DNA from: Candidatus Latescibacterota bacterium
GTDB taxonomy: Bacteria > Latescibacterota > UBA2968 > GCA-2709665
Length of the DNA: 64,000 nt
Direction of reading: 5' to 3'
NCBI GenBank assembly: GCA_965205485.1
Contig: OZ242180.1
Location: 1,664,001-1,728,000, forward strand
Part shown: positions 2,225 through 64,000 of the stretch, in pieces
Layout of the letters: every line of letters starts with the position of its first letter
Numbering within the stretch: position 1 is the first letter of the stretch
Notes under the pieces: generated by a model
What the model saw: only the letters and a program-made list of their open reading frames with translations
Database searches by the model: none
Told to the model about the DNA's origin: nothing
Made by a program: the position numbers and the translations under genes

Positions 2225-2303
2225 TGGGTGTGCATGGTCCTCCGGTCGGTCGGCCGCGGCGTTCGGAGCCTGCTACGGATAAACGACTGATTGGCGAAGG
2301 GTT

Positions 2304-3386: not shown

Positions 3387-3400
3387 CCGCACGGTGCCGC

Positions 3401-3739: not shown

Positions 3740-5770
<2,031 letters not shown>

Positions 5771-5824
5771 ACGCGTATGGCGCCTGCCCCGGCAACCCGC
5801 AGGGTCGGGAGCCGAATTGACTGA

Positions 5825-5867
5825 GAAGCTGTGTTAAAATTACCGGTGGGGAATTTAAGACAGCTTC
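5825..5867 (-). mobile_element. Internally deleted 43-bp copy of the MITE family in the gyrB-gyrA spacer
   Basis: Reverse complement reads GAAGCTGTCTTAAATTCCCCACCGGTAATTTTAACACAGCTTC, i.e. both ends of the 10313 element fused; flanks TGA/TAA. Confidence 0.7.
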
Positions 5868-5887
5868 TAACACGGGAGACACGAAGC

Positions 5888-39233: not shown

Positions 39234-40577
39234 TCAGAAACGGAGGGTGAATACGGTTTCTTCATCGGGCGTGGATTGAACGCTGATGGCGCCGCGATGC
39301 TGGCGCATGATCTGCCGGCATAGCGACAATCCGATGCCCGATCCCTCCTGTCTGGTCGTGAAGAAGGGGATGAAGATGCGGTCCTGCACCTCGTCGAGGA
39401 TGCCAGGGCCGTTGTCCTGTACGCGGATGAGAACGCGCCCCCTTCGGTCCAGGGCCGCAGTGAGGTCGATACGGGGCTGATCTCGCCCGGCCAGGGCTTC
39501 CGCCGCGTTCCGCACGAGATTGATGAGCGCCTGCTCCACGAGGCTCGGGTCGGCCGTGACTTCCAGGGTCTCGGGTTCGACCCGCGTGCGCAGGGCGATG
39601 CCTGCCGTTTCGCATTCCGGATTCATGAGGGACGCAACGCGGTCGAAGAGTCCGGCGACGGGACAGATCCGGAAGTCGGGCCGGGGTATCCGCGTGAGCT
39701 GGCGGTACGTGTCCACAAACTGCTGCAGGCCTTCGCTACGCGACTGTATGGTCTCGAGCGCGGCGCTCACGTCTGCCTCGGTCTGCTGATCGAGCGGGGA
39801 CTGGCGACCGGATTCGGGAAAGTGGCCGCGTACCGTGGAGGCAAGGGACGAAATGGGCGTGATCGAATTCATGATTTCGTGGATGAGTACCCGTATGAGT
39901 TTCTGCCACGCCTCCATTTCCTGTTCTTCCAGTTCGCTCTGGATGTCCTGCACCGACGCCAGAATGAACGATTCGCCGCGCATCCGGATCTCGGTGGCGT
40001 GGATGATGATCTGAAGGAGTTCGTCTTCGTCCTGGACCTTGACCAGGGTCCTGTCGCCCGGGCCCAGCGCGAGAAGCGTGTCGGCAAGGGTCTCGCTCAC
40101 CGTCTGAAGTTCTCGCACGTTGTGGATGTGGGGCCGGCGAAGCAGGCGCTGGGCGGCGGTATTCATCAGCTCGATGCGGCCGTCAGATCCATAACAGACC
40201 AGGCCAACCCCCACGTGCTGGACCACGGTCTGCAGGTATTGGAAGTTCTCCTCTTTTTCCGCGCGCGTCCTCCGGAAGGCGTTCAGCACCTCGTTGAACG
40301 CCTCTTTCAGGTCGTCGAAGGCGGACCCGAGTCCGCGGCCGCTGAAGGACTGGGAGAAGTCTTCGTACCGGATGGCCTGCAGGAAGCGCGTGAGGTCCCG
40401 GCTGGTGCGCTCCACGTAGTGGATGAGGGCATAGGCCTGGTAAAGCGTCATGCCGGCCAGGATGAGGACGGTGGTGTAGTAGGACGTCTCGAAGAGGACG
40501 TACGCAAGGGCGCAGATGGTGGCGCAGAGGAAAGCCACCCGCACGATGCAGAGCGTCCGGAAGTGTCTATAGACCAT
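39234..40577 (-). CDS. Membrane sensor histidine kinase (NtrY-like, with PAS)
   Basis: Two N-terminal TM helices, H-box HEIMNS, N-box INLVRNA, DNGPGI, FIPFFTT and GSGIGL. Confidence 0.93.
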   Translation of the reverse strand: MVYRHFRTLCIVRVAFLCATICALAYVLFETSYYTTVLILAGMTLYQAYALIHYVERTSRDLTRFLQAIRYEDFSQSFSGRGLGSAFDDLKEAFNEVLNAFRRTRAEKEENFQYLQTVVQHVGVGLVCYGSDGRIELMNTAAQRLLRRPHIHNVRELQTVSETLADTLLALGPGDRTLVKVQDEDELLQIIIHATEIRMRGESFILASVQDIQSELEEQEMEAWQKLIRVLIHEIMNSITPISSLASTVRGHFPESGRQSPLDQQTEADVSAALETIQSRSEGLQQFVDTYRQLTRIPRPDFRICPVAGLFDRVASLMNPECETAGIALRTRVEPETLEVTADPSLVEQALINLVRNAAEALAGRDQPRIDLTAALDRRGRVLIRVQDNGPGILDEVQDRIFIPFFTTRQEGSGIGLSLCRQIMRQHRGAISVQSTPDEETVFTLRF

Positions 40578-41943
40578 ATTTTTCCAGCCTGCGGTAGAGT
40601 GCGCTGCGTGTGATGCCCAGTTCCCGGGCCGTGTGGCTGATGTTTCCCTCGTGCTTCTCGATAGCCTTGCGGATAGCGGTCTTCTCGATGCGTTCGAGGT
40701 TGAAGTCTTCGCAGCGAATGTGGTCGCCCGGGGCGGTTTCCGGCGTACTGAGCGGAAAGTCGGACGGTTGCAGCGTTCCGTTTTCGTTCATGATCACCGC
40801 GCGTTCGATGGCGTGCTGCAGTTCGCGGACGTTTCCGGGCCAGGAGTACCCTTTGAGTTTTTCCAGGGTGCCGGGATGCAGGCCGATGCGGGGCTTCTTG
40901 TACTTCCTGCAATACCGGTCCAGGAAACTGCCGATGAGGAGCGGCAGGTCTTCGCGGCGCTCCCGGAGCGGCGGCAGACTGATTTCAACGGTGTTGACGC
41001 GGTAGAGCAGGTCCTGGCGGAATTCGTTTCGCGCGGCCAGTTCGTGGATGGGCGTATTGGTGGCGCACACGAGCCGGATATCGATGGGGACGGGCTTGTT
41101 GGTGCCCAGGCGAAAAACCGTGCGCTTTTCGAGTACGGTGAGCAGCTTTGCCTGAAGCGGCAGCGAGAGGTTGCCGATCTCATCCAGGAACAGCGTCCCG
41201 CCCGAAGCCGTTTCAAACCGCCCCGCACGGTCATCCCTGGCGTCTGTAAAGGCGCCTTTTTTGTGTCCGAAGAGTTCGCTCTCGAAGAGGGTCTCGGGGA
41301 CGGCGCCGAGGTCCACGTGGATGAAGACCTGGTCCGCACGGCCGGAATGACGGTGAAGGGCGCGTGCGACCGCGTCTTTGCCCGTCCCGTTGTCGCCCAA
41401 GATCAGCACGTTGGCGTCGGTGGCGGCGACCTTCCGGATGGATTCGAAAACATCGCGCATCACCGGAGAGACGGCAACGATACCGGGAAACTGCCTGTCC
41501 AGGTCGGCGTGGATCTGCCGCTGGCGGGAGCGCAGCCGGAAGACGTCGAGCCGCGACCGGCGAAGTCTGGCCGCCGATGACAGCGTGGCCAGCAGCTTCT
41601 CGTTCTGCCAGGGCTTCAGGACAAAGTCCGTGGCGCCTTCCCGTATGGCCTGCACGGCCGTATTGACGTCGCCGAACGCCGTGATCAGGACCACCACGGC
41701 GGACGGATCCAGCTCCAGGATCCTTCCGAGCCAGTGGAACCCTTCCCTGCCCGAGGTGGCGTCCTGCGCGAAGTTCATATCCAGCAGGATCACGTCGTAC
41801 GCGTCGTTCTGCAGCAGTTCGGGAATGCGCTCGGGATCGGCTTCGGTATCCACCCGCCCCGCGTGCTGCTTGAGGAAGAGCTGCGCGGCCAGCAGCACGT
41901 CGCGGTCGTCGTCGACGATCAGAATCTTGTCAAATGTCTTCAT
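40567..41943 (-). CDS. Sigma54-dependent response regulator (REC-AAA+-Fis HTH)
   Basis: REC (VDDD, LLDMN, KPW), [36 protein letters not shown] and [15 protein letters not shown]. Confidence 0.96.
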
Positions 41944-42046
41944 GGAAGCCTCTGTCGTTCAGGCATGGAAAGGCCGCAGGTACCCGGCTATCTGGAGCTC
42001 GAAGGGGTAGGGCCAATCCTGCCGGCAATGGCTCATTCCTTTGGGA

Positions 42047-42062
42047 CGCATTTTTCGTGCCA
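42047..42062 (-). promoter_or_regulatory. sigma54 -24/-12 promoter facing the regulator/kinase operon
   Basis: Minus strand reads TGGCACGAAAAATGCG (GG-N10-GC spacing). Confidence 0.65.
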
Positions 42063-42150
42063 ATGCGCCCCATGGATCGAATTCACGCACAACCATAATG
42101 ATCACAGAGACTTATCCTGTCAAGCGGTTCGAGCACCGGCGCCTCCCACG

Positions 42151-42187
42151 TGTCCATTTTCGAACACTGCTGTATCATTATCGGACA
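42151..42187. promoter_or_regulatory. Paired upstream activator sites, copy 1
   Basis: TGTCCATTTTCGAACA-4 bp-TGTATCATTATCGGACA; recurs at 58810 and 62880. Confidence 0.85.
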
Positions 42188-42250
42188 CTCAGAGGATGGC
42201 GTTTTCGTCGACACAGCGCTAAATGCCTGTAAAATCGGGTGAAATCCACA

Positions 42251-42266
42251 TGGCACGCCCGTTGCT
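42251..42266 (+). promoter_or_regulatory. sigma54 -24/-12 promoter of the permease array
   Basis: TGGCACGCCCGTTGCT, a perfect TGGCACG-N4-TTGCW. Confidence 0.88.
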
Positions 42267-42278
42267 GATGTTCTTAAA

Positions 42279-42750
42279 GGATGACAGCGGGAAACAACCG
42301 GCCTGCCCATCGGCCAGCATGTCATTCAGAGCGGAGCGAAGAATCTCCCGTCTTCTCGATTGTCCATGAGGTCAACGCCCGGTAAGCCTTTACGCGCGGA
42401 CGCTCTGACTGCCTTGCGGCCTTTTCTGCATGACACTTTCGGCGAACGTGCTGCCTCTTAGGCGTCGCCACGTGCAAATCGCGCGGGAATGATCCAACGC
42501 CGCAGTAGATCCTTCGTCGGCCTGGGGGCCACCTCTGCATGACGATCTGGTCTGACTTGTAACGGATGTGACTCCTGGACGTTGCACCCAGGCCTCTTCG
42601 ACAGGCTCAGGGCAAGTCCTCTGGATGACAGCGGGAAGCAACGTGCTTGGCTATCGGCCAGCATGTCATTCAGAGCGGAGCGAAGAATCTCCCGTCTTCT
42701 CGATTGTCCACGAGGTCAACAACCGGCAAACCCTTATGCGCGGACGCTTC
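42279..42750. repeat. BIME/REPIN-like mosaic (GTCATTCAGAGCGGAGCGAAGAATCT family), tandemly duplicated
   Basis: Units at 42321 and 42665; inverted partner AGATCCTTCG...CTCTGGATGACA 42507-42630. Confidence 0.85.
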
Positions 42751-42855
42751 GTCGGCACGACAGTATCGGGGTATCTGTGAAGTATCCCTATCGCGGATGA
42801 TACGGCAGTACGAAGTGCTGTTCTTTAAGGAACCTGATCCGTGAGGAGTCAATTG

Positions 42856-45216
42856 ATGTTCTGGAATTATCTCAAGGTGGCTTATCGGAATCTGATGCGG
42901 TACCCGCTTTATGCCGCGATTAACGTGGTGGGCCTGGGCATCGCGATAGCGTTCTGCGTGCTGGCGTTCCTGTATGTACGTCACGAGTGGACCTACGATG
43001 CGTTTCACGAAAACGCCGATCGCATCTACAGGGTCTATGCGGAGGACGATCGAGGACGAAGTAAGGCCGGCGCTCCGCCCGAATTGGCGCCTGCGTTAAC
43101 TGAAGCGTATCCGGATCTACGTATCGCGAGAATTGGTTTTGATTGGAAATACCGATTCATCCACCATCGAGGTGTAAATATAGCGGAGACGATAAACGTT
43201 TCAGATCCCGACATTTTCCAAGTGTTGTCCTTTCCTCTTCTGAAAGGGGATCCGGCAACGGCGCTTAAGGATCCGCACAGTGTGGTTATTACCGAGAACA
43301 TGGCAGAAAAGTATTTTCCGGGTGATGACCCAATTGGTAAGAAGCTATCTATCCTGACAGGTGATGGCGCAGATACCGGCATCCGGGATCTAATCGTTAC
43401 GGGAATAGCACTGCCGGTCCCCAGAAATTCGAGTATTCACTTCGAATTCCTTACCAGGCTTGAAGTTACGGGCAATGAACCTATACGGTGGAGACACATG
43501 TTATTTACAACCTGCATATTGCTGCCAGACGACGTTAGCCCGTCCGAAGTCGAGCAGCGGATGAAAGATCTTGTGTCGACATGGCCCAAAAGCCCAATAT
43601 GGGAGAAATTGAAACTGCAGCCGCTTAGAGATATTCACTTCGGTTCCGTGGGCGTTGGACTACGTCCGGCGGGCAATCCGGTATATTCGTATATCCTGGC
43701 GTGCATTGCGATGTTTGTGCTTGTCATTGCCGCGGTCAATTATACAAACCTATCCGTGGGGATGTCATTCTCTCGTTTTCGGGAAGTTGGATTGCGTAAA
43801 GTGGCCGGTGGTCTGCGAATCCAATTGGCAACGCAGTTTATGACAGAATCGGTACTGCTGACGCTTGTCGCACTTGGGCTTGGCCTCGCGCTGGCCGAAC
43901 TGTTCATGCCGGGCTTCAACAGTCTGACGCGAATGGAATTTTCTATCTCCGATCTGGTGGATTCTACTGCACCGGTTTTTCTGGTTATCCTGTTGCTGGT
44001 AGTAGGCATCGTTTCGGGCAGTTATCCCGCGCTTATTGCGTCACGATTTCTGCCGGCTGATGCGCTTAAAGGGCAGATGAAATTGGAACGATTGGGCCGC
44101 ATTAGACGGGTACTTGTGGTATTGCAGGTTGCCATCTCAATTCTCTTGGTCGGGTGTACGACTGTCGTCGGCCGGCAATTGAATCTGATGACGACGAAAC
44201 CGTTGGGTTTTAGTCCGAAGGATGTTTTTATAGTCCATAGAATGGATAAACTGAGTGATAAAGGAGTTGCCGGAGCCTATCAGGAGGCAGCCCGGTCCTA
44301 CCATGGCGTGTTGAAGACCACAAGAACCGGGCACGCTTTCAGCAACATGATCCAGAGCTTTGCAGATGTAAGATCAGACGGTGCTATTTTGAATGACGTC
44401 CAGATCCTTGACGGCGATCTGGGCTTGCTGGAAACGCTGGCTGTGCGGCTGAAATCGGGTCGAGGATTCGAGAGAGAAGGCGACGCCAAAACATCCGTAC
44501 TCGTTAACGAAGCCCTGGCAGAAAAGCTGGGATGGCAAGCGCCTCAGGGAAAGACACTACAGTTAGGCAGCGGTAGCCGAAAATATACCGTGATCGGCGT
44601 TGTTCGCGACTTTTACTTTCATTCAGTTCATCGTTCCGTAAAGCCCGCAGTGATGACCCTTAATCCCAGATCACGACGTACAAGAATGCTGATGGTTCGC
44701 ATACGACCGGACGACAGGGCGGACGCCGTTCGTTTTTTGAAAGAGAAGTGGGTGGAATTGGCGCCCGGCGAAGTGTTCTACTCTTCGTTTCTCGAGGACG
44801 ACATTGAGCGTCAATACCGAGAGGAACGGCGGTGGTTCAGAATCGCGGGTTACGCGACGTTTTTCGCGGTATTCATCGCCTGTCTGGGCGCCTTCGGACT
44901 GACGTCGCTCACCGTGGCCAGGCGCACCAAGGAAATCGGGATCCGGAAGATCCTGGGAGCGCCGACGTCGCGTATCGTTTCTCTGCTGACACGGGAATAT
45001 GTGGTCCTTGTCGGAATCGCCGCTCTGATCGCCTGGCCCGCGACCCACGTCGCGGCGGAGCGCTGGCTGCGAGACTTCGCGTATCGCGTGGACCCGGGGA
45101 TAGGCACGTTTCTGCTGGGAGGTCTGATCACGCTTCTCGTGGTGCTCCTGGCGGTTAGCCTTCAGGTCACACGTGCAGCCCGCGCGAATCCGGTCGACGC
45201 GCTGCGGTATGAATAG
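42856..45216 (+). CDS. MacB/FtsX-type duplicated ABC transporter permease P1
   Basis: MFWNYLKVAYRN, two MacB periplasmic plus FtsX repeats, RTKEIGIRK and ANPVDALRYE; no ATPase domain. Confidence 0.93.
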   Translation: MFWNYLKVAYRNLMRYPLYAAINVVGLGIAIAFCVLAFLYVRHEWTYDAFHENADRIYRVYAEDDRGRSKAGAPPELAPALTEAYPDLRIARIGFDWKYRFIHHRGVNIAETINVSDPDIFQVLSFPLLKGDPATALKDPHSVVITENMAEKYFPGDDPIGKKLSILTGDGADTGIRDLIVTGIALPVPRNSSIHFEFLTRLEVTGNEPIRWRHMLFTTCILLPDDVSPSEVEQRMKDLVSTWPKSPIWEKLKLQPLRDIHFGSVGVGLRPAGNPVYSYILACIAMFVLVIAAVNYTNLSVGMSFSRFREVGLRKVAGGLRIQLATQFMTESVLLTLVALGLGLALAELFMPGFNSLTRMEFSISDLVDSTAPVFLVILLLVVGIVSGSYPALIASRFLPADALKGQMKLERLGRIRRVLVVLQVAISILLVGCTTVVGRQLNLMTTKPLGFSPKDVFIVHRMDKLSDKGVAGAYQEAARSYHGVLKTTRTGHAFSNMIQSFADVRSDGAILNDVQILDGDLGLLETLAVRLKSGRGFEREGDAKTSVLVNEALAEKLGWQAPQGKTLQLGSGSRKYTVIGVVRDFYFHSVHRSVKPAVMTLNPRSRRTRMLMVRIRPDDRADAVRFLKEKWVELAPGEVFYSSFLEDDIERQYREERRWFRIAGYATFFAVFIACLGAFGLTSLTVARRTKEIGIRKILGAPTSRIVSLLTREYVVLVGIAALIAWPATHVAAERWLRDFAYRVDPGIGTFLLGGLITLLVVLLAVSLQVTRAARANPVDALRYE

Positions 45217-45222
45217 AGCGGG

Positions 45223-45730
45223 CGACCCCTCTCCCAACCCCTCCCCGGCGCGGGGAGGGTAGCGGAAGTGCTGCCTCTCAGGTATTGACACGTGCAGGTC
45301 GCGTGTGGACGATCCAATGCCGCAGTAGATCCTTCGTCGGCCTGGGGCACCCTTCGACAAGCTCAGGGCGAGTGCTCAGGGACCGCAGGCTCAGGGCAAG
45401 TCCTCTGGATGACAGTTCGGGCGAGCGTGTGATGGTCCGACCGTAGGGGCAGGTTTCAAACCTGCCCATGTCGATGTGTCCGCGGATGCCTTGCGATCAC
45501 GAGTGTCGGCTTCCGCAGAGTGGCAGCAAAGTGGGCAGACAGGAATGTCCGCCCCACCCTCAGATCAGGCTTCCGCTCGTCAGGCATTCGCCTTTCTCTG
45601 GATGACAGCGGGAAGCACGTGCTTGACTATGGGTCAGCATGTCATTCAGAGCGGAGCGAAGAATCTCCCGTCTTCTCGCTCGTACGTGTAGCATATGGCT
45701 TTTGTAGACAAATTTGTGCGCGGACGCTTT
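45223..45730. repeat. Mosaic of several REP families between P1 and P2
   Basis: CCCTCTCCCC..GGGGAGGG hairpin, AGATCCTTCG unit 45327-45414 with nested CCCTTCGACAAGCTCAGG, GTAG-type REP 45443-45467, GGCAGACAGGAATGTCCGCCCCACC 45531-45562 and GTCATTCAGAG unit 45641. Confidence 0.85.
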
Positions 45731-45829
45731 CTCAGGTCGACAGTATGAGGCACGCGTAACGAATCCGTATCGCAGTTGATTCGGCAGTACGAAGCGCTTT
45801 GATTGATCCAATCCAAGAGGAGTCAGTCG

Positions 45830-48379
45830 ATGTTCTGGAATTACCTCAAGGTGGCCTGGCGAAATCTGCTGCGGCACCCGCTATATGCAGCCATTAACGT
45901 AGTGGGTCTGGGCATCGCAATTTCGTTTTGTCTGCTGGCGTTCCTTTTTGTGCGATACGAGTGGACCTACGACGGGTTTCACGAAAACGCCGATCGAATC
46001 TACCGGGTCTACGCGGAATTTGAAAGCCGTATCACATCAGAAAATACACCGCGGGAACTGGCGCCGACGCTGTCGGAGGCATTTCCGGACGTCCGTTCCG
46101 TCAGGATACATTCAGGGCTGCGCATTGTCCACGATCGAGGTCAGACCACGAAGGTAAACATCCTTCAGGCGGATCCGTCAATTCTGGACGTCTTTTCCTT
46201 TCCTCTGATCAAGGGAGACCCCGCCACCGCATTGGTGGCTCCGAACTACGTGGTGATTACCGAATCCATGGCTGCGAGATATTTCTCCGGACAGGATCCG
46301 ATCGGAAAGTCGATTTCCGTTCAGGACGTCGAGCCGATGGTATTGAAATTCGGGGGCGGAGGATCGGATGAAAGTGACAAGCAACGGACTGGTCAAAAAG
46401 AAGGTTCGGCCGGCGCAAAGCCGGCCCCGGCGCGGACGGAGGTAAGAATTTTATCCTTCTCAATAGGTCCAACGTCACCTTACACCAGGCAGGAAGAACC
46501 GGATAAACCTCCGACTCAGGAATTGACGGTGACCGGTGTGATCAGAGACATTCCCAAAAACTCTACCCTTCGCTTTGACTTTCTCTCTCCCTTGAACCCT
46601 TACATTCAGAATCGCGAATGGAACACCGTGAACACCTATGTCTTGCTGCCGAAAAATCTGAGTCGCCTCCAAATGGAGCGCCGGCTTGGCGGCCTTTCGA
46701 TACCATGGCCGAGGAACCGACAGCCTGAGAAGCTGAAACTTTTGGCTTTGAGAGACATCTACTTTAATTCCAACATCGTCGGCACCGACGTCGGCGGGGG
46801 CCGCCTCACGGGTCATTCAGGGACTCCCGCCCATTCGTTTATCCTGGGTGGCATTGCGATGCTCGTGCTGATCGTGGCCGCGGTCAACTATACGAACCTA
46901 TCGGTTGGCCGCTCGTTCTCCCGTGCCCGGGAAGTCGGAATGCGGAAGGTTGCCGGGGGACTGCGAACCCAACTGGTGAGGCAGTTTCTCGCGGAATCGG
47001 TCCTGTTGACCCTGGTCGCGTTTGGGCTCGGGCTCGCGCTTGCTGAAGTACTCCTGCCGGGCTTCAACAGCCTGGTCAGCAGGAAGTTCTCCCTTTCCGA
47101 TCTGGCGGATTCCAACTCACTCGCATATCTACTCGTCATGGCGCTGGTTGTGGGGGTTTTCGCCGGGGGTTATCCGGCGTTATTCATGTCGGGATTCTTT
47201 CCGGTCGATGCGTTGAAGGGGCGATTCATGGCGGATCGAATGGGGACCTTCAGCCGTGCGCTCGTCGTGTTCCAACTGGCCATCTCCACGGCACTGGTGA
47301 CATGCATGACCATAGCGTCCATACAAATGAGCATATTGAAATCGAAACCGCTTGGATTCGAGCCCAGCCACGTCGTCGTCGTTCGTCTATTCGGGATAAC
47401 GCAAAGAATGAACTTGGCCAAGGCCTTTGAGGAGGCCGTCCGGCCATACCATTCCGTCTTGAATACGACGAGAACAGCACACGGATTCAGCAGTCTGATG
47501 CGGAGTGCCTTCAACATCAGTTGGGAGGGGAAGACACTGGAAGGCGTTGAGAGTATGATGTGTGATACACGCTTCCTGGAGACAATGGATATAAGGCTAC
47601 TGGACGGGCGGAATTTCGAAAGGGACAGCGATGCGGAGACGTCGGTCATCGTCAACGAAACGCTCGTCAGTACTCTAGGATGGGACGCGCCTCTGGGCGA
47701 GACGATTCGGATCGGCCGGAAGGACTTACAGGTTATCGGCGTCGTCAGGGATTTTCATTTCCGGTCCCTTCACCACGCCATCGGGCCTGCGGTGTTGCAA
47801 TTGCAGGCGACTTCGTCGACCGCCAGGTCCCTGCCGGACTTCCGCGTCCTATTGATGATTCGGATTCGCCCGGAAAACGTCTTTGACACACTGGATTTCC
47901 TGAGAGAGAAGTGGGATGAAATCGCACCGGATGTTCCGTTTGATCATATCTTCCTGGATGAGGAAATAGACCGTCAATACCGCGAAGAACGGCGGTGGTT
48001 CAGAATCGCGGGCTATGCGACCCTTTTTGCCGTGTTCATCTCCTGTCTGGGCGCTTTCGGCTTGACGTCGCTCACCGTCGCCAGACGGACCAAGGAAATC
48101 GGGATCAGGAAGACCCTTGGCGCGCCGACGCCGCGTATCGTTTCTCTGCTGACCAGGGAATACGTGGTCCTCGTCGGAATCGCCGCTCTGATCGCCTGGC
48201 CCGCGACCTACTTCGCGGCAGAGCGCTGGCTGCGCGATTTCGCGTATCGCGTGGACCCGGGGCTCGGGACATTTCTGCTGGGAGGCGCGCTCATGCTTCT
48301 CATGGTGCTCCTGGCGGTGAGCCTTCAGGTCACCCGGGCAGCCCGGGCGAATCCCGTGGACGCGTTGCGGTATGAGTGA
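45830..48379 (+). CDS. MacB/FtsX-type ABC permease P2
   Basis: Same architecture as P1, with a ~50-aa insertion in the first periplasmic domain. Confidence 0.93.
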   Translation: MFWNYLKVAWRNLLRHPLYAAINVVGLGIAISFCLLAFLFVRYEWTYDGFHENADRIYRVYAEFESRITSENTPRELAPTLSEAFPDVRSVRIHSGLRIVHDRGQTTKVNILQADPSILDVFSFPLIKGDPATALVAPNYVVITESMAARYFSGQDPIGKSISVQDVEPMVLKFGGGGSDESDKQRTGQKEGSAGAKPAPARTEVRILSFSIGPTSPYTRQEEPDKPPTQELTVTGVIRDIPKNSTLRFDFLSPLNPYIQNREWNTVNTYVLLPKNLSRLQMERRLGGLSIPWPRNRQPEKLKLLALRDIYFNSNIVGTDVGGGRLTGHSGTPAHSFILGGIAMLVLIVAAVNYTNLSVGRSFSRAREVGMRKVAGGLRTQLVRQFLAESVLLTLVAFGLGLALAEVLLPGFNSLVSRKFSLSDLADSNSLAYLLVMALVVGVFAGGYPALFMSGFFPVDALKGRFMADRMGTFSRALVVFQLAISTALVTCMTIASIQMSILKSKPLGFEPSHVVVVRLFGITQRMNLAKAFEEAVRPYHSVLNTTRTAHGFSSLMRSAFNISWEGKTLEGVESMMCDTRFLETMDIRLLDGRNFERDSDAETSVIVNETLVSTLGWDAPLGETIRIGRKDLQVIGVVRDFHFRSLHHAIGPAVLQLQATSSTARSLPDFRVLLMIRIRPENVFDTLDFLREKWDEIAPDVPFDHIFLDEEIDRQYREERRWFRIAGYATLFAVFISCLGAFGLTSLTVARRTKEIGIRKTLGAPTPRIVSLLTREYVVLVGIAALIAWPATYFAAERWLRDFAYRVDPGLGTFLLGGALMLLMVLLAVSLQVTRAARANPVDALRYE

Positions 48380-48555
48380 GGGCGGGCACGGCGACCCCTC
48401 CCCCGGCCCCTCCCCGGCGCGGGGAGGGATGTTCCCCGCGTCTCGACGGAAGCATTTCGCGGATGATTCGGCAGCACAAAGTGGAGTCCTACAGTTTCCG
48501 TTGCGGCTGGGCATAGCAAAGCCGCGCCAGGGAAAGACACAGGAGGTGGCCCAAC

Positions 48556-50946: not shown

Positions 50947-51016
50947 GGGCGGACGTGCTGCCTCTCCCACGGTCTTTCGGCTTCCACACCAAAATAGCCG
51001 GAGCCGCCGAGCGATG

Positions 51017-51654
51017 GATACACTTCGACGACGGCTATAGTAAGTCATGTCATTCAGAGCGGAGCGAAGATCTGACCGATACATTTCTCCAATGGTTATT
51101 GCAATTCGTGTAATTCAAAGCGTAGCCAAGAATCTCCCGTCTTCTCGGCTGGACGTGCAGTATATGGCCTTTGTAGACGAACTTGTGCGCGGACGCTTCG
51201 ACACCCTTTCGGCTTCCTCTGCAAGACGGTTTGTGCCGACCCTTGGCCGAAACATCTCGCCAGTGGTTACTGCAAAACAAGTCATTCAGAGTGGAGTCGA
51301 AACAATAGCGGTTTTGTGCTGCATTTGTTGGAGGGCCGAATGCCGGAAGCTTTGCAATCATCCCATGCTGCAGTAGATCCTTCGTCGGCCCGGGGAACTC
51401 GTCTGCACGACAATCTGGTCCCATGTGAAACCGACGTGATCCCTCGTCGTTGCACCCAGGCCTCCTCTGGATGACAGTTTAGGCGAACGTTTGACCGATA
51501 CACTTCGCCAAGGGATATTGCAAAGCATTTCATTCTGAGCGCAGCGAAGAATCTCCTGTCTTCTCGACCGGACGTGGAGCAGAAGCCTTCACCGGCCCAT
51601 TTGCGCGGACGTTTCTTCAGCATGTTGGCAGACAGGAATGTCCGTCCCACCCTC
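51017..51654. repeat. Mosaic REP array between P3 and P4
   Basis: GTCATTC-family units at 51049, 51110, 51281 and 51529; inverted partner 51375-51476; GGCAGACAGGAATGTCC copy at 51627. Confidence 0.85.
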
Positions 51655-51695
51655 AAAACGGCTACCTCAGCGACAATGCAGGCGAGGAATCGGCG

Positions 51696-54068: not shown

Positions 54069-54111
54069 TGGGAATGCCGTTTGACATACGTACATGTAGA
54101 TCTGCCGCCCT

Positions 54112-54349
54112 GTCATTCAGAGCGCAGCGAAGAATCTCCTGTCTACTCGCTCGTACGTGTAGTATATGGCCTTTGACGACAAACTCGTGCGCGGATGCTT
54201 CGACAGCCTTGCGGTTTCTCCTTGTATCCGCAATTCGACAGGAGAATCTTGAGGTGGGCAGACAGGAATGTCCGCCCCACCCTCACACCGGCTTCCTGAT
54301 GACAGTTTGTACCGACACCTGACCGACAGATTTCGCCAATGGTTATTGC
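54112..54349. repeat. Mosaic REP unit after P4
   Basis: GTCATTCAGAGCGCAGCGAAGAATCT 54112, GTGGGCAGACAGGAATGTCCGCCCCACC 54254 and GACCGACAGATTTCGCCAATGGTTATTGC 54321. Confidence 0.8.
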
Positions 54350-54361
54350 CGATGGCGCTCG

Positions 54362-55759: not shown

Positions 55760-56008
55760 ATCGATGCGTGTGCAGGGACCGGCCCGGAGACGATTTCAAG
55801 CTTGACGTTGCGGAATCAGGTTGGCTACATTGGTGTTGCGCGGTCTGTGGTCCATGGATTCATTTGTAGAATTCGAAATTGCGGGCGACACGCGGGTTCT
55901 TGGGACTCTATCCTGTTTATCCTGTCCATCCATGTAAATTCCCGCTTTGTGAATTGAAGAGGCTGGATAAGCGGTCATTCAGGACCGCTTTTTGTTTTGG
56001 GTGCGCCA

Positions 56009-57175: not shown

Positions 57176-57309
57176 GACGTTAGACGGGAGATGAAGTCCT
57201 TGCCCGATAGGTTTACCTATTCGCCTGCGGCGTGAGCTGAAACCCGCACCGGGCAGACAATCTCTACCCTCTTACGTCTTACGTCTACCCGCTTTCGGAG
57301 GGTTGATTG

Positions 57310-57343
57310 AAAAAAACCACCGGCCTCTCTACGAGACCGGCGG
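57310..57343 (-). terminator. Rho-independent terminator (minus strand; possibly bidirectional)
   Basis: Minus strand reads CCGCCGGTCTC-GTAGA-GAGGCCGGTGG-T7. Confidence 0.75.
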
Positions 57344-57357
57344 TTCTTTGTGAAAAT

Positions 57358-57432
57358 TTATCCCTTTGGTCGCCTTTGACCCTTGACGAATACGAGCCTC
57401 GGGCGGCGTCTTCGCCGTTTGATCTGTGGCAC
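57358..57432 (-). CDS. Putative 24-aa Arg/Lys-rich small protein MPQIKRRRRRPRLVFVKGQRRPKG
   Basis: AAAAGGGGGTGGTGACC RBS directly before GTG, TAA stop and a terminator 14 bp downstream; below the ORF-track size cutoff. Confidence 0.55.
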   Translation of the reverse strand: MPQIKRRRRRPRLVFVKGQRRPKG

Positions 57433-57517
57433 GGTCACCACCCCCTTTTAAGGTAGATATATTATTGGTTTCATGGATTTGATCGTTTTCCGTGAAGATT
57501 TGTTCCAGGAAAAAAAC

Positions 57518-57812
57518 CAGCTGTCAGCCATCAGCCTTCAGCGGTCAGCAAAAGGCAAGAACGAAATGCATATTCAAGAGCAACCCCTCCTCCCAGCCCC
57601 GCAGACCTCTACCCCAGGCCCCTCAGACAAAGCTGTCGGCCCTTAGCCAACAGCAAAACAAAGAATCAGGTGACGTCTGCGCCGTTATGTGGGCGATCGC
57701 CAAAGGCAGGCAACCACGAGGGTTGCCCCTACAAATGCAACGACGGCGTTCCGAGGGCAGGATGCGCTCGACACTATTACCCCTGTCCTTCAGGAGAGGG
57801 GTCAGGAAGTAG
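57518..57812. repeat. Cluster of heptamer-tandem, GTAG-REP and hairpin repeats
   Basis: CAGCTGTCAGCCATCAGCCTTCAGCGGTCAGC; reverse-complement GTAGGGGCAACCCTCGTGGTTGCC 57709-57732; CGAGGGCAGGATGCGCTCG 57752; CCCCTGTCCTTCAGGAGAGGGG. Confidence 0.7.
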
Positions 57813-57942
57813 ATCTGAAAGGCGGTGAGAAGGGAGACTGGAAAGGTCGAGGAGTGAGGTATAAAACGTGAGTGTCGGGCCGGAAACCGATCGCCGTGTG
57901 GCGACCGGATGGAGATATTGACGGTCTGTCACATTATGCTTG

Positions 57943-58338
57943 CTACAATGTCGCCCACTTTCGCTGAATCGGATACGAGTCAAGACTCGAATCTCGACTT
58001 ACGATTGGGATGCCTTCTACAATACTCTGCGCGACAATGAGCCGATCAAAAGGATCGTGATGAAAGAACGAGAGGTTTCTGACAACATCGAGATGTCGAG
58101 GACTGATATGAAGAAGATCGATCGCATTGTCTGCGATATGTTCGTCAACAAGATTCGCAAACGACGTGTTGAGTTGCAGCTTACCAATACTGACCTTTAT
58201 TGCCATTTCCCATAAGCTCGCAATGCTCAAAAGGCGCTGGTTATCGGAACTCTCGATTAATTGTCTGGCAATTGAGCTGAGATTGGGGTCGCCGTTGACG
58301 AACCAAAGATACGTGTGGGTGTCAAGTAGCAACTTCAC
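57943..58338 (-). CDS. Type II toxin, VapC/PIN domain
   Basis: LLLDTH, SIASLWEMAIK.SIGKL and HHDPFDRLIVAQ. Confidence 0.93.
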   Translation of the reverse strand: MKLLLDTHTYLWFVNGDPNLSSIARQLIESSDNQRLLSIASLWEMAIKVSIGKLQLNTSFANLVDEHIADNAIDLLHISPRHLDVVRNLSFFHHDPFDRLIVAQSIVEGIPIVSRDSSLDSYPIQRKWATL

Positions 58339-58562
58339 GGAGAATAGCCCCGGAAATCGTCAATGGGTTCGTCGAAGTCATCGGACACCTGGATGAGACC
58401 CTTCGCGCTCCCGTATTTTGGTGTTGGTTGATCGTGGGACAGCGCAACGAGTTTCACGGAGGAGCCGTCAGTCTGGGTGATGATGATCTCTTCGCCATTT
58501 GTTGCTTCTTTAACCAGTTCGGCGAGGCAGGATTCTGCTTCTGTCAGGGAGATTTTCTGCAT
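58335..58562 (-). CDS. Type II antitoxin, Phd/YefM-like
   Basis: EA...L.ELV..A..GEEIIIT and GSAKG.I..SDDFDEP; GTGA overlap with the toxin gene. Confidence 0.9.
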   Translation of the reverse strand: MQKISLTEAESCLAELVKEATNGEEIIITQTDGSSVKLVALSHDQPTPKYGSAKGLIQVSDDFDEPIDDFRGYSP

Positions 58563-58809
58563 TTTCAATCCCTCAATATCTGCAGATTTATGACTGTTTG
58601 AATAATAAATATCGCAAATTTCAAGTTTTCCTGCAATTCCTAATCGAATTTGCTACACCTACTTTTTTTAGTTTGGCATGGGATGATGGCGTCTCATTCA
58701 ACGGGAAACTTACCTACCTGCGACGCTGGTAACAGCGCATTTTTCACCTCCAGGGAAAGTGAAGACAAAACACATCTGCAATCTGTGGTTGCCGTAATTT
58801 ACCCCATAT

Positions 58810-58926
58810 TGTCCATTTTCGGACAATAGTGTATCATTATCGAACACTTGTCGGGCAGTTCCATCGGACAAGTATCACATATATAATTGTTAATTAATAA
58901 GTTGTATTCATGGCACGATAATCGCA
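58810..58926 (+). promoter_or_regulatory. Paired activator sites, IHF-like site and sigma54 promoter (copy 2)
   Basis: TGTCCATTTTCGGACA (58810-25), TGTATCATTATCGAACA (58830-46), AATTAATAAGTTG (58892-58904) and TGGCACGATAATCGCA (58911-26). Confidence 0.85.
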
Positions 58927-59097
58927 AGTGGACAGATCGCCGGGACGTTCGGCGATCCACATACTTCGGTCCGGGTGCCTGAGCGGAAAACCGCTCCAGA
59001 ATCGATTCTTGCGTGTGAGACCGTGTTCGGGGCATGTTCGGATGTTTGATGTAAACGGACAGCTGGAACGACCCACATTTTCGGAGGTGGAGATCCG

Positions 59098-59922
59098 ATG
59101 AAATCGATTTCAATCACGATCGCGATATCCGGCCTCTGTCTGTTGCCAGTTGGATGCGACGCGGGCAAGATTGTCGAGGAGGAGGTCCTCGAGCGTTCCG
59201 TCGAGCTTGCGCTCGGAGGACGACTCACCATTGTCAACGTGAACGGGGATGTCTCAGTCAGTTCCTGGGACCGGCTCGAGGTGAAGATGAAGGCGGTCAA
59301 GCGCGCGCGTGCCGAAAGCGCAGAAGAGGCACGGCTGCTTCTGGATAAGACCACGGTGCAATTCGAAAGAACCGAAGAGGGGATCGACATCCGCACGGAT
59401 GCACCAAAAAAACCGGGGAGGAACCGAAACGTCAGCGTCGCCTATACGGTGACGGTGCCTAAAGAGATCGACCTGGAATTGAAAACGGTCAATGGAACCA
59501 TAGAGGTCAAGGATATATCTGGCGCCGTCGATGCGAAGACGACCAACGGCCGCATCGGGCTTACCGGGATCGTCGGGGCAATTCAGGCAAAGACGACGAA
59601 CGGTAAGATCGGTCTCCTGGAGGTGCTGGGTCCGATCAACGCGAAGACGACAAACGGGAGCATCGAGGTGGCGGTTGGCGGGAGCGGCGAACAACAGCAC
59701 GAGTTCCGCGCTGCAACGACAAACGGCAGCATCGAGGTAACGCTGCCAAAAGGTCTGAAAGCAAACCTGAAAGCATCCACGGTAAACGGAAAGATCAATA
59801 CCGATTTTCCGGTTACCGTGAAGGGCCTCATCAGCAAGTCCGTCGACGGCGTCATCAACGGCGGCGGGGAACTGATTCATCTGAAGACGGTGAACGGATC
59901 GATTCGGTTGAAGGAGCGATAG
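59098..59922 (+). CDS. DUF4097 beta-strand-repeat (putative adhesin) lipoprotein
   Basis: Lipobox LPVGC; repeated (K/A)T(T/V)NG.I motifs; GGAGGT RBS. Confidence 0.88.
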   Translation: MKSISITIAISGLCLLPVGCDAGKIVEEEVLERSVELALGGRLTIVNVNGDVSVSSWDRLEVKMKAVKRARAESAEEARLLLDKTTVQFERTEEGIDIRTDAPKKPGRNRNVSVAYTVTVPKEIDLELKTVNGTIEVKDISGAVDAKTTNGRIGLTGIVGAIQAKTTNGKIGLLEVLGPINAKTTNGSIEVAVGGSGEQQHEFRAATTNGSIEVTLPKGLKANLKASTVNGKINTDFPVTVKGLISKSVDGVINGGGELIHLKTVNGSIRLKER

Positions 59923-60513
59923 ACCGCAAGTCCGCCTTCGTTAGCGTTCATAACGATTGCTTTCTTGGACGTCTCTGAACGCCAGGGGGTATATCGCAGA
60001 ATGCTCCCTTCCACAACGGAAAGACCCACGCTGCCGGGCAGACAGCGAATGGTCTGATCTACGAAACGTCCACCTTCAGGCAGGAAGACCAAACGTATTC
60101 CGCTTCGGTTCGAGGGGACGAATCAGGCGAGACCCACGATAATCGGCTGAAGTGGCAGGCTCAGATCCCGGACTTCCGGGTTCAGCTTCTCAATGGCGAT
60201 TCTCTGGCAATCGCCTGAGAGGCGGATTCGTGGTAATCAACTGGTGGGCCACCACCTGTTCGCCGTGTTTTGCCCGGGTTGAATGAACTGGTAGAGAAAT
60301 ACACAATGACGATATTTCATTCCTTGCCATTGCGACCGACAAAAGAGAAGACCTTTCTCGGTTCCTCGAAAGTCGCAAATTCGCATACACCCAGGCACTG
60401 TACAACGATACGGTTACAGAAATTTTCGGGAATGCGCTTTTCTACAGATTACGTGAAAGTGTACGCACGAGACCGTTTGACGTCCGAATCACTCCCATAA
60501 AGGCACGGGACCC

Positions 60514-62853
60514 ATGCTCCGAAATTACCTGATCGTTGCGTATCGCAATCTCATGCGCCACAGGGTCTACTCCCTGATCAACGTGGCGGGGCTCTCAATC
60601 GGGATCGCAATCTGCATTCTGGCGTTCTTGTACATCCGTAACCAGTGGACGTACGATGCGTTCCATGAGAATGCAGGCCGGATCTACAGGGCCTGCCTCG
60701 TTGACCGTACGGGTGCGAGTGGGCAGACGCCCGACGCGTTAGGTCCGGCCCTGGAAGAGGCGTTTCCGGACCTTCGAACCGTGAGGATGGGCTGGGGTGC
60801 TTCCTCGGTGAAGTATCAGGACCGGACCATTGTCGGAATTTTCAGAGTTGCCGATCCGGCGATTCTGGAAGTGTTTACCTTTCCCCTCCTCCGTGGAGAT
60901 CCGGCGACGGCAATGGAAGATCCCTACTCGCTCATTGTCACCGAAGGGGCATCTCGGAAGTACTTCGGCGACGAAGACCCCATCGGTAAAGTCCTTTCTG
61001 TGGAGATGTGGGGGCGACCGCCAGTGGTCCGGGACTTCGTTATCACCGGGATTGCGAAATCCATACCCAAGAATTCCAGCATTCGGTTTGATTTTCTGGC
61101 CACGATTGCGGATAGAGGCAAGGCGCGTAGCTGGTCAATGAGCTCTACCCAGACATTTGTATTGCTTTCAGAAAACAAACGTCCGGCGGATGTCGAAGAT
61201 CGATCTACAAAGTTACTCAGGGCAAACCGGGGAGAGCGGTGGAACGAGTCAATCACCTTGCAGCCACTGCTGGAGATGCATCTCAATCGGGGTAAACGCG
61301 GACCCGATGGAGCAGGAAACCCGGCGTTATCTTACATTCTGCTCGGTATCGCTCTCCTCGTCCTCACGATTGCCTGTGTGAACTTCATTACCCTCGCTGT
61401 GGGCCGATCTTACTACCGCGACCGGGAGGTGGCGATGCGGAAGGTGGCGGGTGCGTCCCGGAACCAGTTGAGGATGCAGTTTCTTGGAGAATCGACGCTA
61501 CTATGCCTTTTCGCGCTCATTGCCGGCGTTGGTTTAACGGAGCTTCTCCTGCCGGCTTTCAATAGTATTGTTGTCACCGACCTTGCCTTGGGCGATCAAG
61601 TCGACGGTGGGGGTCTGGCTCTTTTGGTTGGAATCATCGTAATCGTCGGACTGACCGCGGGCGGCTACCCTGCCTTCGTGCTGTCAGGGGTCCCGCCTGC
61701 TGCGGCATTGAAAGGCCGCATGCGGCTCGGTGGGCCGAGCCGATTCGGGCGTGCGCTGATGATATTGCAATTCGTTCTGTCCGTGTCCCTCGTCGTCACG
61801 GCGCTGCTAATGGTCAGGCAGTTTGATTTCCTGAGGTCGAAACCCCTGGGGTTTGACAGTGAACATCTTGTGCGCATCGATGCATTTGATACGCTGCAGC
61901 CGGGTACGGGACTGACCGAGGTTTACCGGAACGAGTTGTCAGGACACCATATGATTCTGGGCGTAACGGCCACCAGTCACACTCTGAGCAACAGGACGAG
62001 ACTCCATGGTATTGTCGAACATGAAGGAAAAGAGATCGATGTAGAACACATCGAAGTCGGCCATGATTTTCTGGAGACCATGGGCGTATCGCTCCTGGAA
62101 GGCGCCGATTTCGATCCACGTAAGCCGGGTTCATCGAGATTCTTTATTATCAACGAGTCCCTGGTCCATCGTCTGGGATGGGAAGGTCCGATCCAAGGCA
62201 GGACGCTGCGGGGAAACAACCGAAACTTTACTGTTATCGGAGTGGTACAGGACTTTCATTTTCGGTCTTTGCATCACAAAATCGGGCCTATGGTGTTGAC
62301 TTTCTTTCCTCGCCACACCTATCAGATGCTTGTCAGGATCCGTCCTGAGAACGTACCCGGTACACTGGCCTTCCTCAAGGACAAGTGGCGGAAGGTAGCG
62401 CCGGGCCGCGAGTTTCGCTATTCCTTTCTAGACGATGAACTGGACAGGCAGTACTGGAGGGAGGAACGATTAAGCCGCATTCTTGGATATGCTACGCTGC
62501 TGGCGATCTTCATTGCCTGTCTCGGCGCGTTCGGGCTTACCGCCCTTGCAGTGGCCAGGCGTACCCGGGAGATTGGGATCCGGAAGGTACTGGGCGCCCA
62601 TGCGTCCGGGATTGTCTCCCTGTTATCCAGGGATTTTGTTAAGCTCGTGGTCATTGCGAGTCTGATCGCGTTCCCGGCGGCGTACTATGCGACGGAACGA
62701 TGGCTGCAAGATTTCGCGTACCGGATCGACCCGGACTTTCCTTCCTTTGCGATAGGCGCGGCGTTCGTGCTGCTGGCTGTCCTGCTGACCGTGAGCGTCC
62801 AGGCCATCCGGGCGGCCTGGGCGAATCCGGTGGATGCGCTGCGTACCGAGTGA
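60514..62853 (+). CDS. MacB/FtsX-type ABC permease P5
   Basis: MLRNYLIVAYRN, RRTREIGIRK and ANPVDALRTE; P1/P2 subfamily (WTYDAFHENA, CLGAFGLT). Confidence 0.93.
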   Translation: MLRNYLIVAYRNLMRHRVYSLINVAGLSIGIAICILAFLYIRNQWTYDAFHENAGRIYRACLVDRTGASGQTPDALGPALEEAFPDLRTVRMGWGASSVKYQDRTIVGIFRVADPAILEVFTFPLLRGDPATAMEDPYSLIVTEGASRKYFGDEDPIGKVLSVEMWGRPPVVRDFVITGIAKSIPKNSSIRFDFLATIADRGKARSWSMSSTQTFVLLSENKRPADVEDRSTKLLRANRGERWNESITLQPLLEMHLNRGKRGPDGAGNPALSYILLGIALLVLTIACVNFITLAVGRSYYRDREVAMRKVAGASRNQLRMQFLGESTLLCLFALIAGVGLTELLLPAFNSIVVTDLALGDQVDGGGLALLVGIIVIVGLTAGGYPAFVLSGVPPAAALKGRMRLGGPSRFGRALMILQFVLSVSLVVTALLMVRQFDFLRSKPLGFDSEHLVRIDAFDTLQPGTGLTEVYRNELSGHHMILGVTATSHTLSNRTRLHGIVEHEGKEIDVEHIEVGHDFLETMGVSLLEGADFDPRKPGSSRFFIINESLVHRLGWEGPIQGRTLRGNNRNFTVIGVVQDFHFRSLHHKIGPMVLTFFPRHTYQMLVRIRPENVPGTLAFLKDKWRKVAPGREFRYSFLDDELDRQYWREERLSRILGYATLLAIFIACLGAFGLTALAVARRTREIGIRKVLGAHASGIVSLLSRDFVKLVVIASLIAFPAAYYATERWLQDFAYRIDPDFPSFAIGAAFVLLAVLLTVSVQAIRAAWANPVDALRTE

Positions 62854-62879
62854 AGACCATCTTTCCGCATCCTCGACAC

Positions 62880-62996
62880 TGTTCGTTTTCGGACATTGGT
62901 GTATCAAAATCGGACACTTGATTGACGTCTCTTCGCTAGAGTAAACGATATACAGTCGAAATCTATGTGCAAATGACTGTTGGCACGGTTGTCGCT
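62880..62996 (+). promoter_or_regulatory. Paired activator sites and sigma54 promoter (copy 3)
   Basis: TGTTCGTTTTCGGACA (62880-95), TGTATCAAAATCGGACA (62900-16) and TGGCACGGTTGTCGCT (62981-96). Confidence 0.85.
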
Positions 62997-63045
62997 TTAT
63001 TGATCCGCCAGGCCGTCAGAATCCGTAAATTCGATACAAGAAGGA

Positions 63046-63678
63046 GTGAATACAATTTCCGATGAGATGAAATGTGAATGCAGGAACCTGGACGTCACGC
63101 CTGAATCCGACGCGTCGGTGATCGATCGGGCGCTTGCAGGCGACGAGTGGGCCTTTACGTACCTTTACAGGGCCCACCGCGATCGGGTGCGTGCGCTTGT
63201 GAGGCGCGATTCAGAAGGCCCGGACGAGACCGAGGACCTGGTCCAGATGGTCTTCATCAAGGCGTTTCTGGGGCTGGCCGGTTTTCGCGGACAGGCCGCT
63301 TTCACCACGTGGCTCACGCGCATCGCGTTGAATGAGTGTACCAATTACGTGCGGTCCCTGAAAAGGCGGAAGACCTGGTTGAGTGAGATTGAGGATGCCG
63401 TGCCCGCGATCCAGGCGCGCTGGCTGCCGGCTGCTGGCGAAGATCCCGAAACGGCGATGGTCCGGAAGGAACGCAGGGAAATCGTGAAGCGGAGCATCAA
63501 TGCGCTGCCGGAACGTCACCGCGACGCGGTCTGTCTGCATTATCTTATGGATCGGTCCTACGATGAGATCGCCGAGCAGCTGCAGGTACCGGTGGGGACC
63601 CTGAAAGTCTGGATGTACCGGGGGCGGCAGGGTTTGAGGCGGGAAGTCGAGCGGCAGGGGATGGCGGGGGATTTATAG
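63046..63678 (+). CDS. ECF-family RNA polymerase sigma factor
   Basis: GD..AF, EDLVQ..F, F.TWL.RIA.N and LP...R...SY.EIA..L..PVGT.K...RGR; AAGGAG RBS. Confidence 0.93.
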   Translation: MNTISDEMKCECRNLDVTPESDASVIDRALAGDEWAFTYLYRAHRDRVRALVRRDSEGPDETEDLVQMVFIKAFLGLAGFRGQAAFTTWLTRIALNECTNYVRSLKRRKTWLSEIEDAVPAIQARWLPAAGEDPETAMVRKERREIVKRSINALPERHRDAVCLHYLMDRSYDEIAEQLQVPVGTLKVWMYRGRQGLRREVERQGMAGDL

Positions 63679-63739
63679 CGGCGGCCTGAGATCCCGTAAT
63701 GCTCGAGGCCGGCGTTTCAGAGGACGTTGAGTCAAAACG

Positions 63740-64000
63740 ATGGAAGAGCAAAAACCAAAGAAGGAAAAGGGACGCGTGTTGCGTCTGAATCGTTCAGGCG
63801 CGTCGTCTGATCGCCAGGCTTCCGATCCGGAGGCGTCTCAAGGTCCGGCGGACTCGGTAGGCGGAGACAAACCGGTCCCCGGTTTCGTGAATCCGGGTAC
63901 GTCCGCGTCTGGACGGGAGACGCCATCCACGGGCATGGACCGCAAGATCGAGAAGAAGCTGTTGACGTCGAAGCGCATCATCACTGCAGGGGCGGTCACC
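63740..64000 (+). CDS. 5' fragment of a probable HlyD-family/MacA-like periplasmic adaptor (runs off the window)
   Basis: Open from ATG 63740 (alternative ATG 63935) to the window end. MDRKIEKKLLTSKRIITAGAV resembles the basic pre-TM N-terminus of adaptors that accompany these permeases. Confidence 0.55.
   Translation, partial: MEEQKPKKEKGRVLRLNRSGASSDRQASDPEASQGPADSVGGDKPVPGFVNPGTSASGRETPSTGMDRKIEKKLLTSKRIITAGAVT

Follow-up and report, generated by a model that had tools for sequence, protein, structure and literature searches.

A tandem-dyad operator as the probable site of an NtrC-type regulator at sigma-54 promoters of MacB-like exporters in a Latescibacterota genome

Operators and promoters in the window and the genome

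We analyzed a 64,000-nucleotide stretch of a Candidatus Latescibacterota genome (assembly GCA_965205485.1, contig OZ242180.1, positions 1,664,001 to 1,728,000), here called the window; the whole genome, of 5.13 Mb, is labelled G000. A 37-bp element recurs in the window. With a probability of about 0.82, it serves the NtrC-type regulator encoded next to it as a tandem upstream activator site, from which that protein would switch on the sigma-54 promoters of a set of MacB-like exporters. As judged by comparative genomics, the regulon is real and well supported, and its switch is of textbook design.

The element starts at 42151, 58810 and 62880 (operator 1, 42151..42187; operator 2, 58810..58846; operator 3, 62880..62916), and its exact pattern is absent elsewhere in the window and the genome. 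Each copy consists of a 16-bp dyad A (TGT-N10-ACA), four free base pairs and a 17-bp dyad B (TGT-N11-ACA). Three -24/-12 promoter sequences follow on the plus strand (42251..42265, 58911..58925 and 62981..62995). Their TGGCACG starts at 42251, 58911 and 62981, that is +100, +101 and +101 from the operator start, and their -12 element is GC in all three cases (the GG-N10-GC form). The original prediction, made from the sequence of the window, had claimed the three paired dyads, the promoters 100, 101 and 101 bp past them and the divergence of the DNA in between, and all of this held: the operator-to-promoter spacers are 17-43% identical, ungapped, over the six pairs formed by these sites and a fourth one in the genome.

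The fourth site emerged from a genome scan that had been called for at the outset, done with a matrix trained on the three window operators only. The window sites score 52-55 bits, one further site scores 44.5 and the next best 22.6; with up to six mismatches allowed, there is a single additional match in the genome. At the fourth site (G000, 3521792), TGGCACG starts at +103, which has a chance probability of ~2.3e-4 in a 4-bp window, and the -12 element is GA; the gene behind it encodes a permease of 812 aa from the family of the window permeases. Because the matrix had not seen this site, its promoter and same-family permease argue that the dyad pattern is more than chance. The predicted regulon of three window targets thus stands and gains a member outside the window and, likely, the regulator's own operon. 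Strict -24/-12 matches number 28 in the genome, four of them with the dyad pair and four others with a single TGT-N10/11-ACA. The genome contains rpoN (TIGR02395, 436 bits, above the cut-off) and four HU/IHF-family genes, and seven of its 12 permeases lie behind an operator, if clusters are read through.

The repeats might instead be passengers of duplicated promoter cassettes or of mobile-element ends, perhaps not all of them functional. Such an origin could draw on the repetitive extragenic palindromic (REP)-like repeats found in permease leaders, and on another genome (G040), in which more than 60% of the spacer is common to both members in nine of 45 promoter pairs, as is the upstream flank in some. 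We regard it as very improbable: the spacers have diverged here while dyads, spacing and promoter are kept, and the spacing steps by helical turns across phyla. Duplication accounts for the spread of the element, not for its conservation, and is largely refuted as an explanation in this genome.

The one claim that failed was a spacing fixed at 100-101 bp, since the distance is 100-103 bp within the genome and changes in ~11-bp steps across phyla. Among 77 non-redundant dyad-promoter pairs, the second half-site ends at +37 in 32, at +38 in 21 and at +36 in one, and is absent in 23 (background 3.7%). For the 54 two-dyad promoters, the distances form clusters at 78-81, 89-92, 100-105, 115 and 124-126 and leave 93-99 and 106-114 empty; Bacteroidota loci came from a dyad-plus-promoter scan bounded to distances of 76-106. 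On an 11-bp ladder, 51 of the 54 fall within 2.5 bp of a rung, against about half expected by chance. As the distances step by ~11 bp across phyla, we read 100-101 bp as one rung of a helical ladder, as DNA looping predicts. In the largest class of sigma-54 promoters, the nearest activator site is no more than 100 nt away (PMC4641369). By a relaxed, post hoc pattern, 16 of the 54 promoters have an IHF-like element between -33 and -31, and a wider window gives 17 of 54 versus 2.1 in shuffles. At promoter 1, the putative element lies 31 bp upstream (42220..42230, plus strand), by the same kind of relaxed pattern picked after the sites were seen.

Operator 1 is common to two divergent promoters. 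A -24/-12 sequence that the first reading had missed (42048..42062, minus strand) faces the regulator gene at 104 bp from dyad A, and a sigma-70-like match (10/12; 42095..42123, minus strand), 28 bp from the operator, faces the same gene as a possible basal promoter. The minus-strand -24/-12 is the same 14-mer in 14 of 14 genus loci examined, and in all 14 both it and the sigma-70-like match are kept while nearby bases vary; with 13 such sigma-70-like matches in the region (7.9 expected), the latter is weak evidence alone. Positive feedback on the regulator operon through the shared operator is likely here and not general, because a linked regulator-facing promoter was found in 23 of 124 orthologs, 14 from one genus and nine from elsewhere.

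CRP-type sites share the TGT-N10-ACA outline, and the 16-bp dyad could be bound by a modulator of these promoters that belongs to the CRP/FNR family or is another non-AAA+ factor. We find this hardly credible. The shape of dyad A, and of dyad A only, would fit, as would the sigma-70-like promoter 28 bp from operator 1; against this, the CRP-family helix-turn-helix (HTH; PF13545) was not found above the cut-off in the genome, the motif co-occurs with the activator, and a sigma-54 promoter requires an AAA+ activator anyway (PMC4641369).

The regulator and its operator across genomes

The regulator gene (40567..41943, minus strand) encodes a 458-aa NtrC-type response regulator and enhancer-binding protein with a receiver, a sigma-54 AAA+ domain with GAFTDA and a Fis-type HTH (Pfam and sequence); together with a kinase gene it is divergent from operator 1. 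Its loop is of the GAFTGA type, with the Phe and Thr described as critical residues (PMC3162934) intact, and reads GAFTDA in 70 of 77 ortholog proteins. The protein falls below the cut-off of all 25 NCBIfam equivalogs listed, including NtrC, NifA, AtoC, ZraR, NtrX, GlrR and PrsR (best score 384.5 versus 502.6).

The sites had been assigned to this protein as the adjacent GAFTDA-type regulator. As the genome has 14 sigma-54 activators, adjacency alone is insufficient to name the one at work, and GAFTDA was rejected as an identifier because one other of the 14 has it too. The assignment itself is supported. The predicted recognition helix, LG[LI][TS]RxxLYRR, is conserved among the orthologs, and each of the genome's 13 other activators has a different one.

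A lack of motif enrichment near orthologous regulators had been named as grounds for giving up the prediction; a dyad lies within 400 bp upstream in 79 of 124 non-identical orthologs, versus 0.5% of shuffles. This count left out rows with less than 420 bp upstream, less than 45% identity or a missing N-terminus. It was made with a single-dyad pattern in place of a strict-geometry matrix, which had located sites in no more than 19 of 80 distant loci because the inter-dyad spacer is 4 or 5 bp. The divergent layout with dyad and promoter also occurs in two Pseudoalteromonas records, and exporter genes lie on the divergent side in 42 of the 74 loci with more than 2 kb upstream. Labilibaculum euxinus and Roseivirga spongicola, both culturable, carry the locus as well. 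Among six plasmid loci examined, two (L154, L155) lack the dyad. In the distant genomes of L058, L070, L208 and L216, a small protein of 87-98 aa and no known family stands directly behind dyad and promoter.

Motif and regulator also tend to occur together. Across 151 genomes of the phylum, which are kin and not independent, and with only 11 candidates per genome scored, 64 have both, eight the regulator only, five the motif only and 74 neither, with no hits for a reversed-pattern control. A hand count within the four mixed genera finds the motif in 17 of the 21 regulator-bearing genomes and in none of the 17 others. The dyad-plus-promoter pattern in 151 Bacteroidota genomes gives 22 with both, 14 with regulator only, two with motif only and 113 with neither (control 0). 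Taken with the ortholog-adjacent dyads, this co-occurrence supports the operators as sites of the adjacent regulator. In G040 the regulator has no adjoining site, yet nine of ten sites have a promoter at 101-102 bp. These nine head seven permeases, one ATPase and one thioredoxin-like gene followed by a permease, so that eight directly head a permease or ATPase; as far as gene layout tells, this genome shows control by the regulator at a distance. G016, a single contig, has a truncated kinase (C1 39716-40537), two permeases and neither regulator nor motif. Going by these remnants, it is a system in decay.

A number of observations weigh against the regulon as we read it. Five of the 12 permeases of the genome have no operator, a dyad is missing from the 400 bp upstream of 45 of the 124 orthologs, exporter genes are absent from the divergent side of 32 of the 74 loci, and the linked regulator-facing promoter is present in only the minority of orthologs given above. 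Kinship among the genomes makes the tallies look more independent than they are. Both the 11-bp ladder and the IHF pattern were chosen after the data had been seen, and the IHF-like element is in place at only two of the four promoters of the genome. Among motif-only genomes, G037, G128 and G072 of the phylum have no regulator match, and no kinase was found in them, G072 having seven sites with no regulator or kinase ortholog found; the Bacteroidota genomes G207 and G288 have no regulator match, and the kinase was not found there either. Of 11 sites examined in G067, seven have a -24/-12 at 101-104 bp and four no promoter match, and the operator-headed genes, which include those for propeller, DUF4159 and oxidoreductase proteins, contain none that reads as a permease.

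Some of these points suit a different owner of the sites, namely another of the 14 activators, or several with similar DNA-binding heads, the neighbouring regulator being merely co-inherited with the exporters. The number of activators, the motif without a detected ortholog in the five genomes just named and the different targets in one lineage all favour it. We nevertheless consider it quite improbable, as the dyad adjoins the ortholog in 79 of 124 loci from several phyla, motif and regulator are gained and lost jointly within genera (17/21 versus 0/17), and the remaining activators have different recognition helices. Moreover, two of the five motif-only phylum genomes hold the kinase: G019, where it is near a contig start, and G031, which also has a regulator cut by the contig end.

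Further targets were seen outside this genome. In one family of the phylum (G067: L115, L233-L242; also L117-L119), the operator heads secreted-looking propeller proteins and others in place of permeases, often with degenerate -24 boxes, and the Cyclobacteriaceae loci have, across the dyad from the regulator, a small divergent gene that is no exporter. Symmetric sites in G072, G055 and G073 were considered as promoter-less look-alikes, which was rejected, as they have a degenerate -24/-12 at 112, 102 and 102 bp.

Kinase, target genes and possible function

The sensor histidine kinase (39234..40577, minus strand, 447 aa) has a predicted membrane hairpin, a helical linker, a PAS-like domain, a phospho-His helix and an ATPase domain. 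HATPase_c was identified by Pfam, and H233 is invariant in 82 aligned relatives. In a structure model with a mean predicted local distance difference test score (pLDDT) of 79, helices 2-30 and 34-70 are joined by a 3-residue turn; the protein is predicted to insert as a two-helix membrane hairpin and to have no outer sensor domain. The same hairpin is present in the full-length kinase orthologs examined. From the secondary-structure pattern of the model, we infer that the next alpha/beta domain is PAS-like. When permease P3 was modelled together with two copies of kinase residues 1-100, the predicted complex scored 0.01, which, with one of the 12 permeases tried, is evidence neither way.

Phosphorylated sigma-54 activator dimers bind dyads, oligomerise, loop the DNA and open the promoter. 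Since sigma-54 activators generally work so, we propose that the kinase would phosphorylate the regulator, two dimers of which would bind the dyads, two helical turns apart, and assemble an AAA+ ring; this would loop to the sigma-54 polymerase, aided by an IHF-family protein, and open the promoter. The output would be the MacB-like ABC (ATP-binding cassette) exporter set and, likely, the regulator's own operon. The signal and the function are the weakest parts of this reading. Having no predicted outer domain, the kinase most likely senses the condition of the membrane or that of the exporter. A membrane or PAS cue read by the kinase has somewhat less than an even chance, sensing coupled to the transporter is a tentative and distinctly less probable option, and the rest of the weight goes to sensing through some other partner. 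As to function, the regulon may serve envelope export or detoxification of peptide-like substrates, a single adaptor and ATPase being shared by many permeases that can stand in for one another. That the substrates are peptide-like is a guess by kinship with ADOP and DarBCD, to which the matches lie below cut-offs.

Even with the pairing of operator and regulator right, the regulon might be a general secretion or envelope-remodelling response in which exporters are the commonest targets, the kinase responding, by way of its PAS-like domain, to a cue from the membrane or the cytoplasm that does not depend on the exporter. We give this not quite even odds; it contests only the last, inferred step of our explanation. 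It would suit the non-exporter targets in G067 and its kin, the ECF (extracytoplasmic function) sigma and DUF4097 genes among the targets here, the 32 of 74 loci without an adjacent exporter and the modelled cytoplasmic PAS-like domain. It is less at ease with the dominance of exporter genes among the first genes behind the operator and with the co-occurrence of regulator and permease in mixed genera (hand count of 38 genomes: 19 with both, two with the regulator only, three with the permease only and 14 with neither), a co-occurrence that by itself fits a sensing partnership or plain regulation alike.

The target genes of the window, all on the plus strand, are those originally claimed (Pfam). 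Promoter 1 precedes four permeases of the duplicated MacB_PCD/FtsX type, P1 (42841..45216, 791 aa), P2 (45803..48379, 858 aa), P3 (48556..50946, 796 aa) and P4 (51696..54068, 790 aa), which are presumably co-transcribed across gaps of ~590, 180 and 750 bp. Promoter 2 precedes a DUF4097 (Toastrack) protein (59098..59922, 274 aa) and permease P5 (60514..62853, 779 aa). The DUF4097 assignment of the former was confirmed, and its description as a lipoprotein is reduced to a possibility by an imperfect lipobox read from the sequence. Promoter 3 precedes an ECF sigma factor (63046..63678, 210 aa) with no anti-sigma gene after it. The next frame (63740..64000), of which only the start lies in the window, bears out the predicted adaptor as HlyD-type and periplasmic; its true start is likely 63935, where the family N-terminus matches. 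Beyond the window edge (L001) the adaptor continues, and an ABC ATPase and a sixth permease, P6, follow. Between adaptor and ATPase (L001 1182-2421) there is a short frame flanked by runs of a short repeated unit; to judge by its sequence, the product may be a four-helix-bundle protein. The ECF sigma factor has a paralog (G000 2816943-2817518), 43% identical, with no operator match nearby.

Permeases, adaptor and ATPase find their best NCBIfam matches in ADOP (TIGR03434; 277-311 versus a cut-off of 622) and in DarB (NF038008; 63-121 versus 700), DarC (NF038010; 170 versus 450) and DarD (NF038007; 270 versus 375), all below cut-off. Structure comparison returned only distant MacB-type permeases and generic kinases among solved structures. 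The permease family is large, with more than 7,700 of 8,000 scored candidates passing an E-value of 1e-100 and ~40 permease matches in one relative genome. A TolC-family member of the regulon was sought and rejected, as none of the eight OEP-containing frames of the genome is behind an operator. One TolC-family gene (G000 3119105-3120614) has a -24/-12 match ~270 bp before its first domain and no dyad pair, and is a candidate outer channel under another activator.

The REP-like repeat of the permease leaders lies at 42256-42440, 42623-42748, 45600-45678, 51046-51567 and 54100-54149, with 23 BLAST pieces in the genome. A block of ~126 bp is duplicated inside the 590-bp leader of P1, and the leader in the relative locus L134 is only ~100 bp long. 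Directly upstream of operator 2, an AT-richer stretch holds a PIN-domain gene (57943-58338, minus strand), likely the toxin half of a toxin-antitoxin pair outside the regulon. At the start of the window are dnaN, recF, gyrB and gyrA (890-8374), the usual origin-region genes.

Relation to known systems

Literature searches, made largely on titles and abstracts of open-access papers, found no description of the operator or the regulator, and the operator is not described in the parts seen of PMC3162934, PMC9723704, 10.1101/2020.09.24.301986, PMC8657755 and PMC4641369. Sigma-54 control of the permease family is already in print (PMC12316311): sigma-54 promoters are enriched before COG0577 FtsX-like permeases in Gammaproteobacteria, Opitutia and Bacteroidia, which was termed a previously unrecognised axis, and the parts of that paper seen name no activator, operator or kinase. 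The switch itself adds nothing new on sigma-54. With the operator, the regulon could be traced by sequence in phyla that have not been cultured, and together with its predicted activator the operator would give a reporter for finding the inducing signal in a culturable species.

In the NtrB/NtrC system of enteric bacteria, a receiver-AAA+-Fis activator acts from tandem dyads ~100 bp upstream, as at glnAp2 and glnALG. The system described here resembles it in its kinase and receiver-AAA+-Fis activator, in the tandem dyads ~100 bp before a -24/-12 promoter and in having sigma-70-like and sigma-54 promoters before the regulator's own operon. It differs in operator sequence, in its membrane-anchored kinase and in its exporter targets, and the regulator scores 324 versus the NtrC cut-off of 558.6. 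The upstream activator sequence of NifA is TGT-N10-ACA, accompanied by an IHF site. Dyad A shares this outline, and the distance and, where it is in place, the putative IHF-like element between operator and promoter are also alike, whereas the inner bases here are TGTYCR-N4-YGRACA, a second dyad is obligate 21-22 bp on, and the protein is a response regulator (305 versus the NifA cut-off of 528.85).

ADOP permeases are tied to PadR regulators; ADOP and DarBCD are the best NCBIfam matches of the present proteins, yet none of these reaches its cut-off. Toastrack proteins occur in operons with ABC parts under other regulators (10.1101/2020.09.24.301986). Control of an alternative sigma factor gene by a sigma-54 activator, as suggested here for the ECF sigma factor, is a likeness to HrpS/HrpR and hrpL, where HrpS drives hrpL (PMC8657755). 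The Hrp activators differ in having no receiver domain.

BceR is an OmpR-type regulator, and a BceB-type permease is part of the Bce module. In the system described here the output would instead pass through a sigma-54 activator of NtrC type, and it would do so in diderm cells, with an adaptor protein and with duplicated MacB_PCD/FtsX permeases, up to dozens per genome. What the system has in common with BceRS-BceAB of Firmicutes is a kinase that lacks an extracellular domain and adjoins a MacB-related ABC transporter whose genes it would up-regulate; BceS senses through its ABC transporter (PMC9169098). Transporter-dependent sensing in the present case is an analogy with Bce. If it held, a prospect we rate as rather doubtful, the system would be a diderm, sigma-54-coupled counterpart of Bce flux sensing, in which the kinase would read the permease repertoire as a receptor array and the 37-bp operator, found from Latescibacterota to Bacteroidota and Pseudoalteromonas, would feed the signal back to the array, the kinase-regulator operon and the ECF sigma factor.

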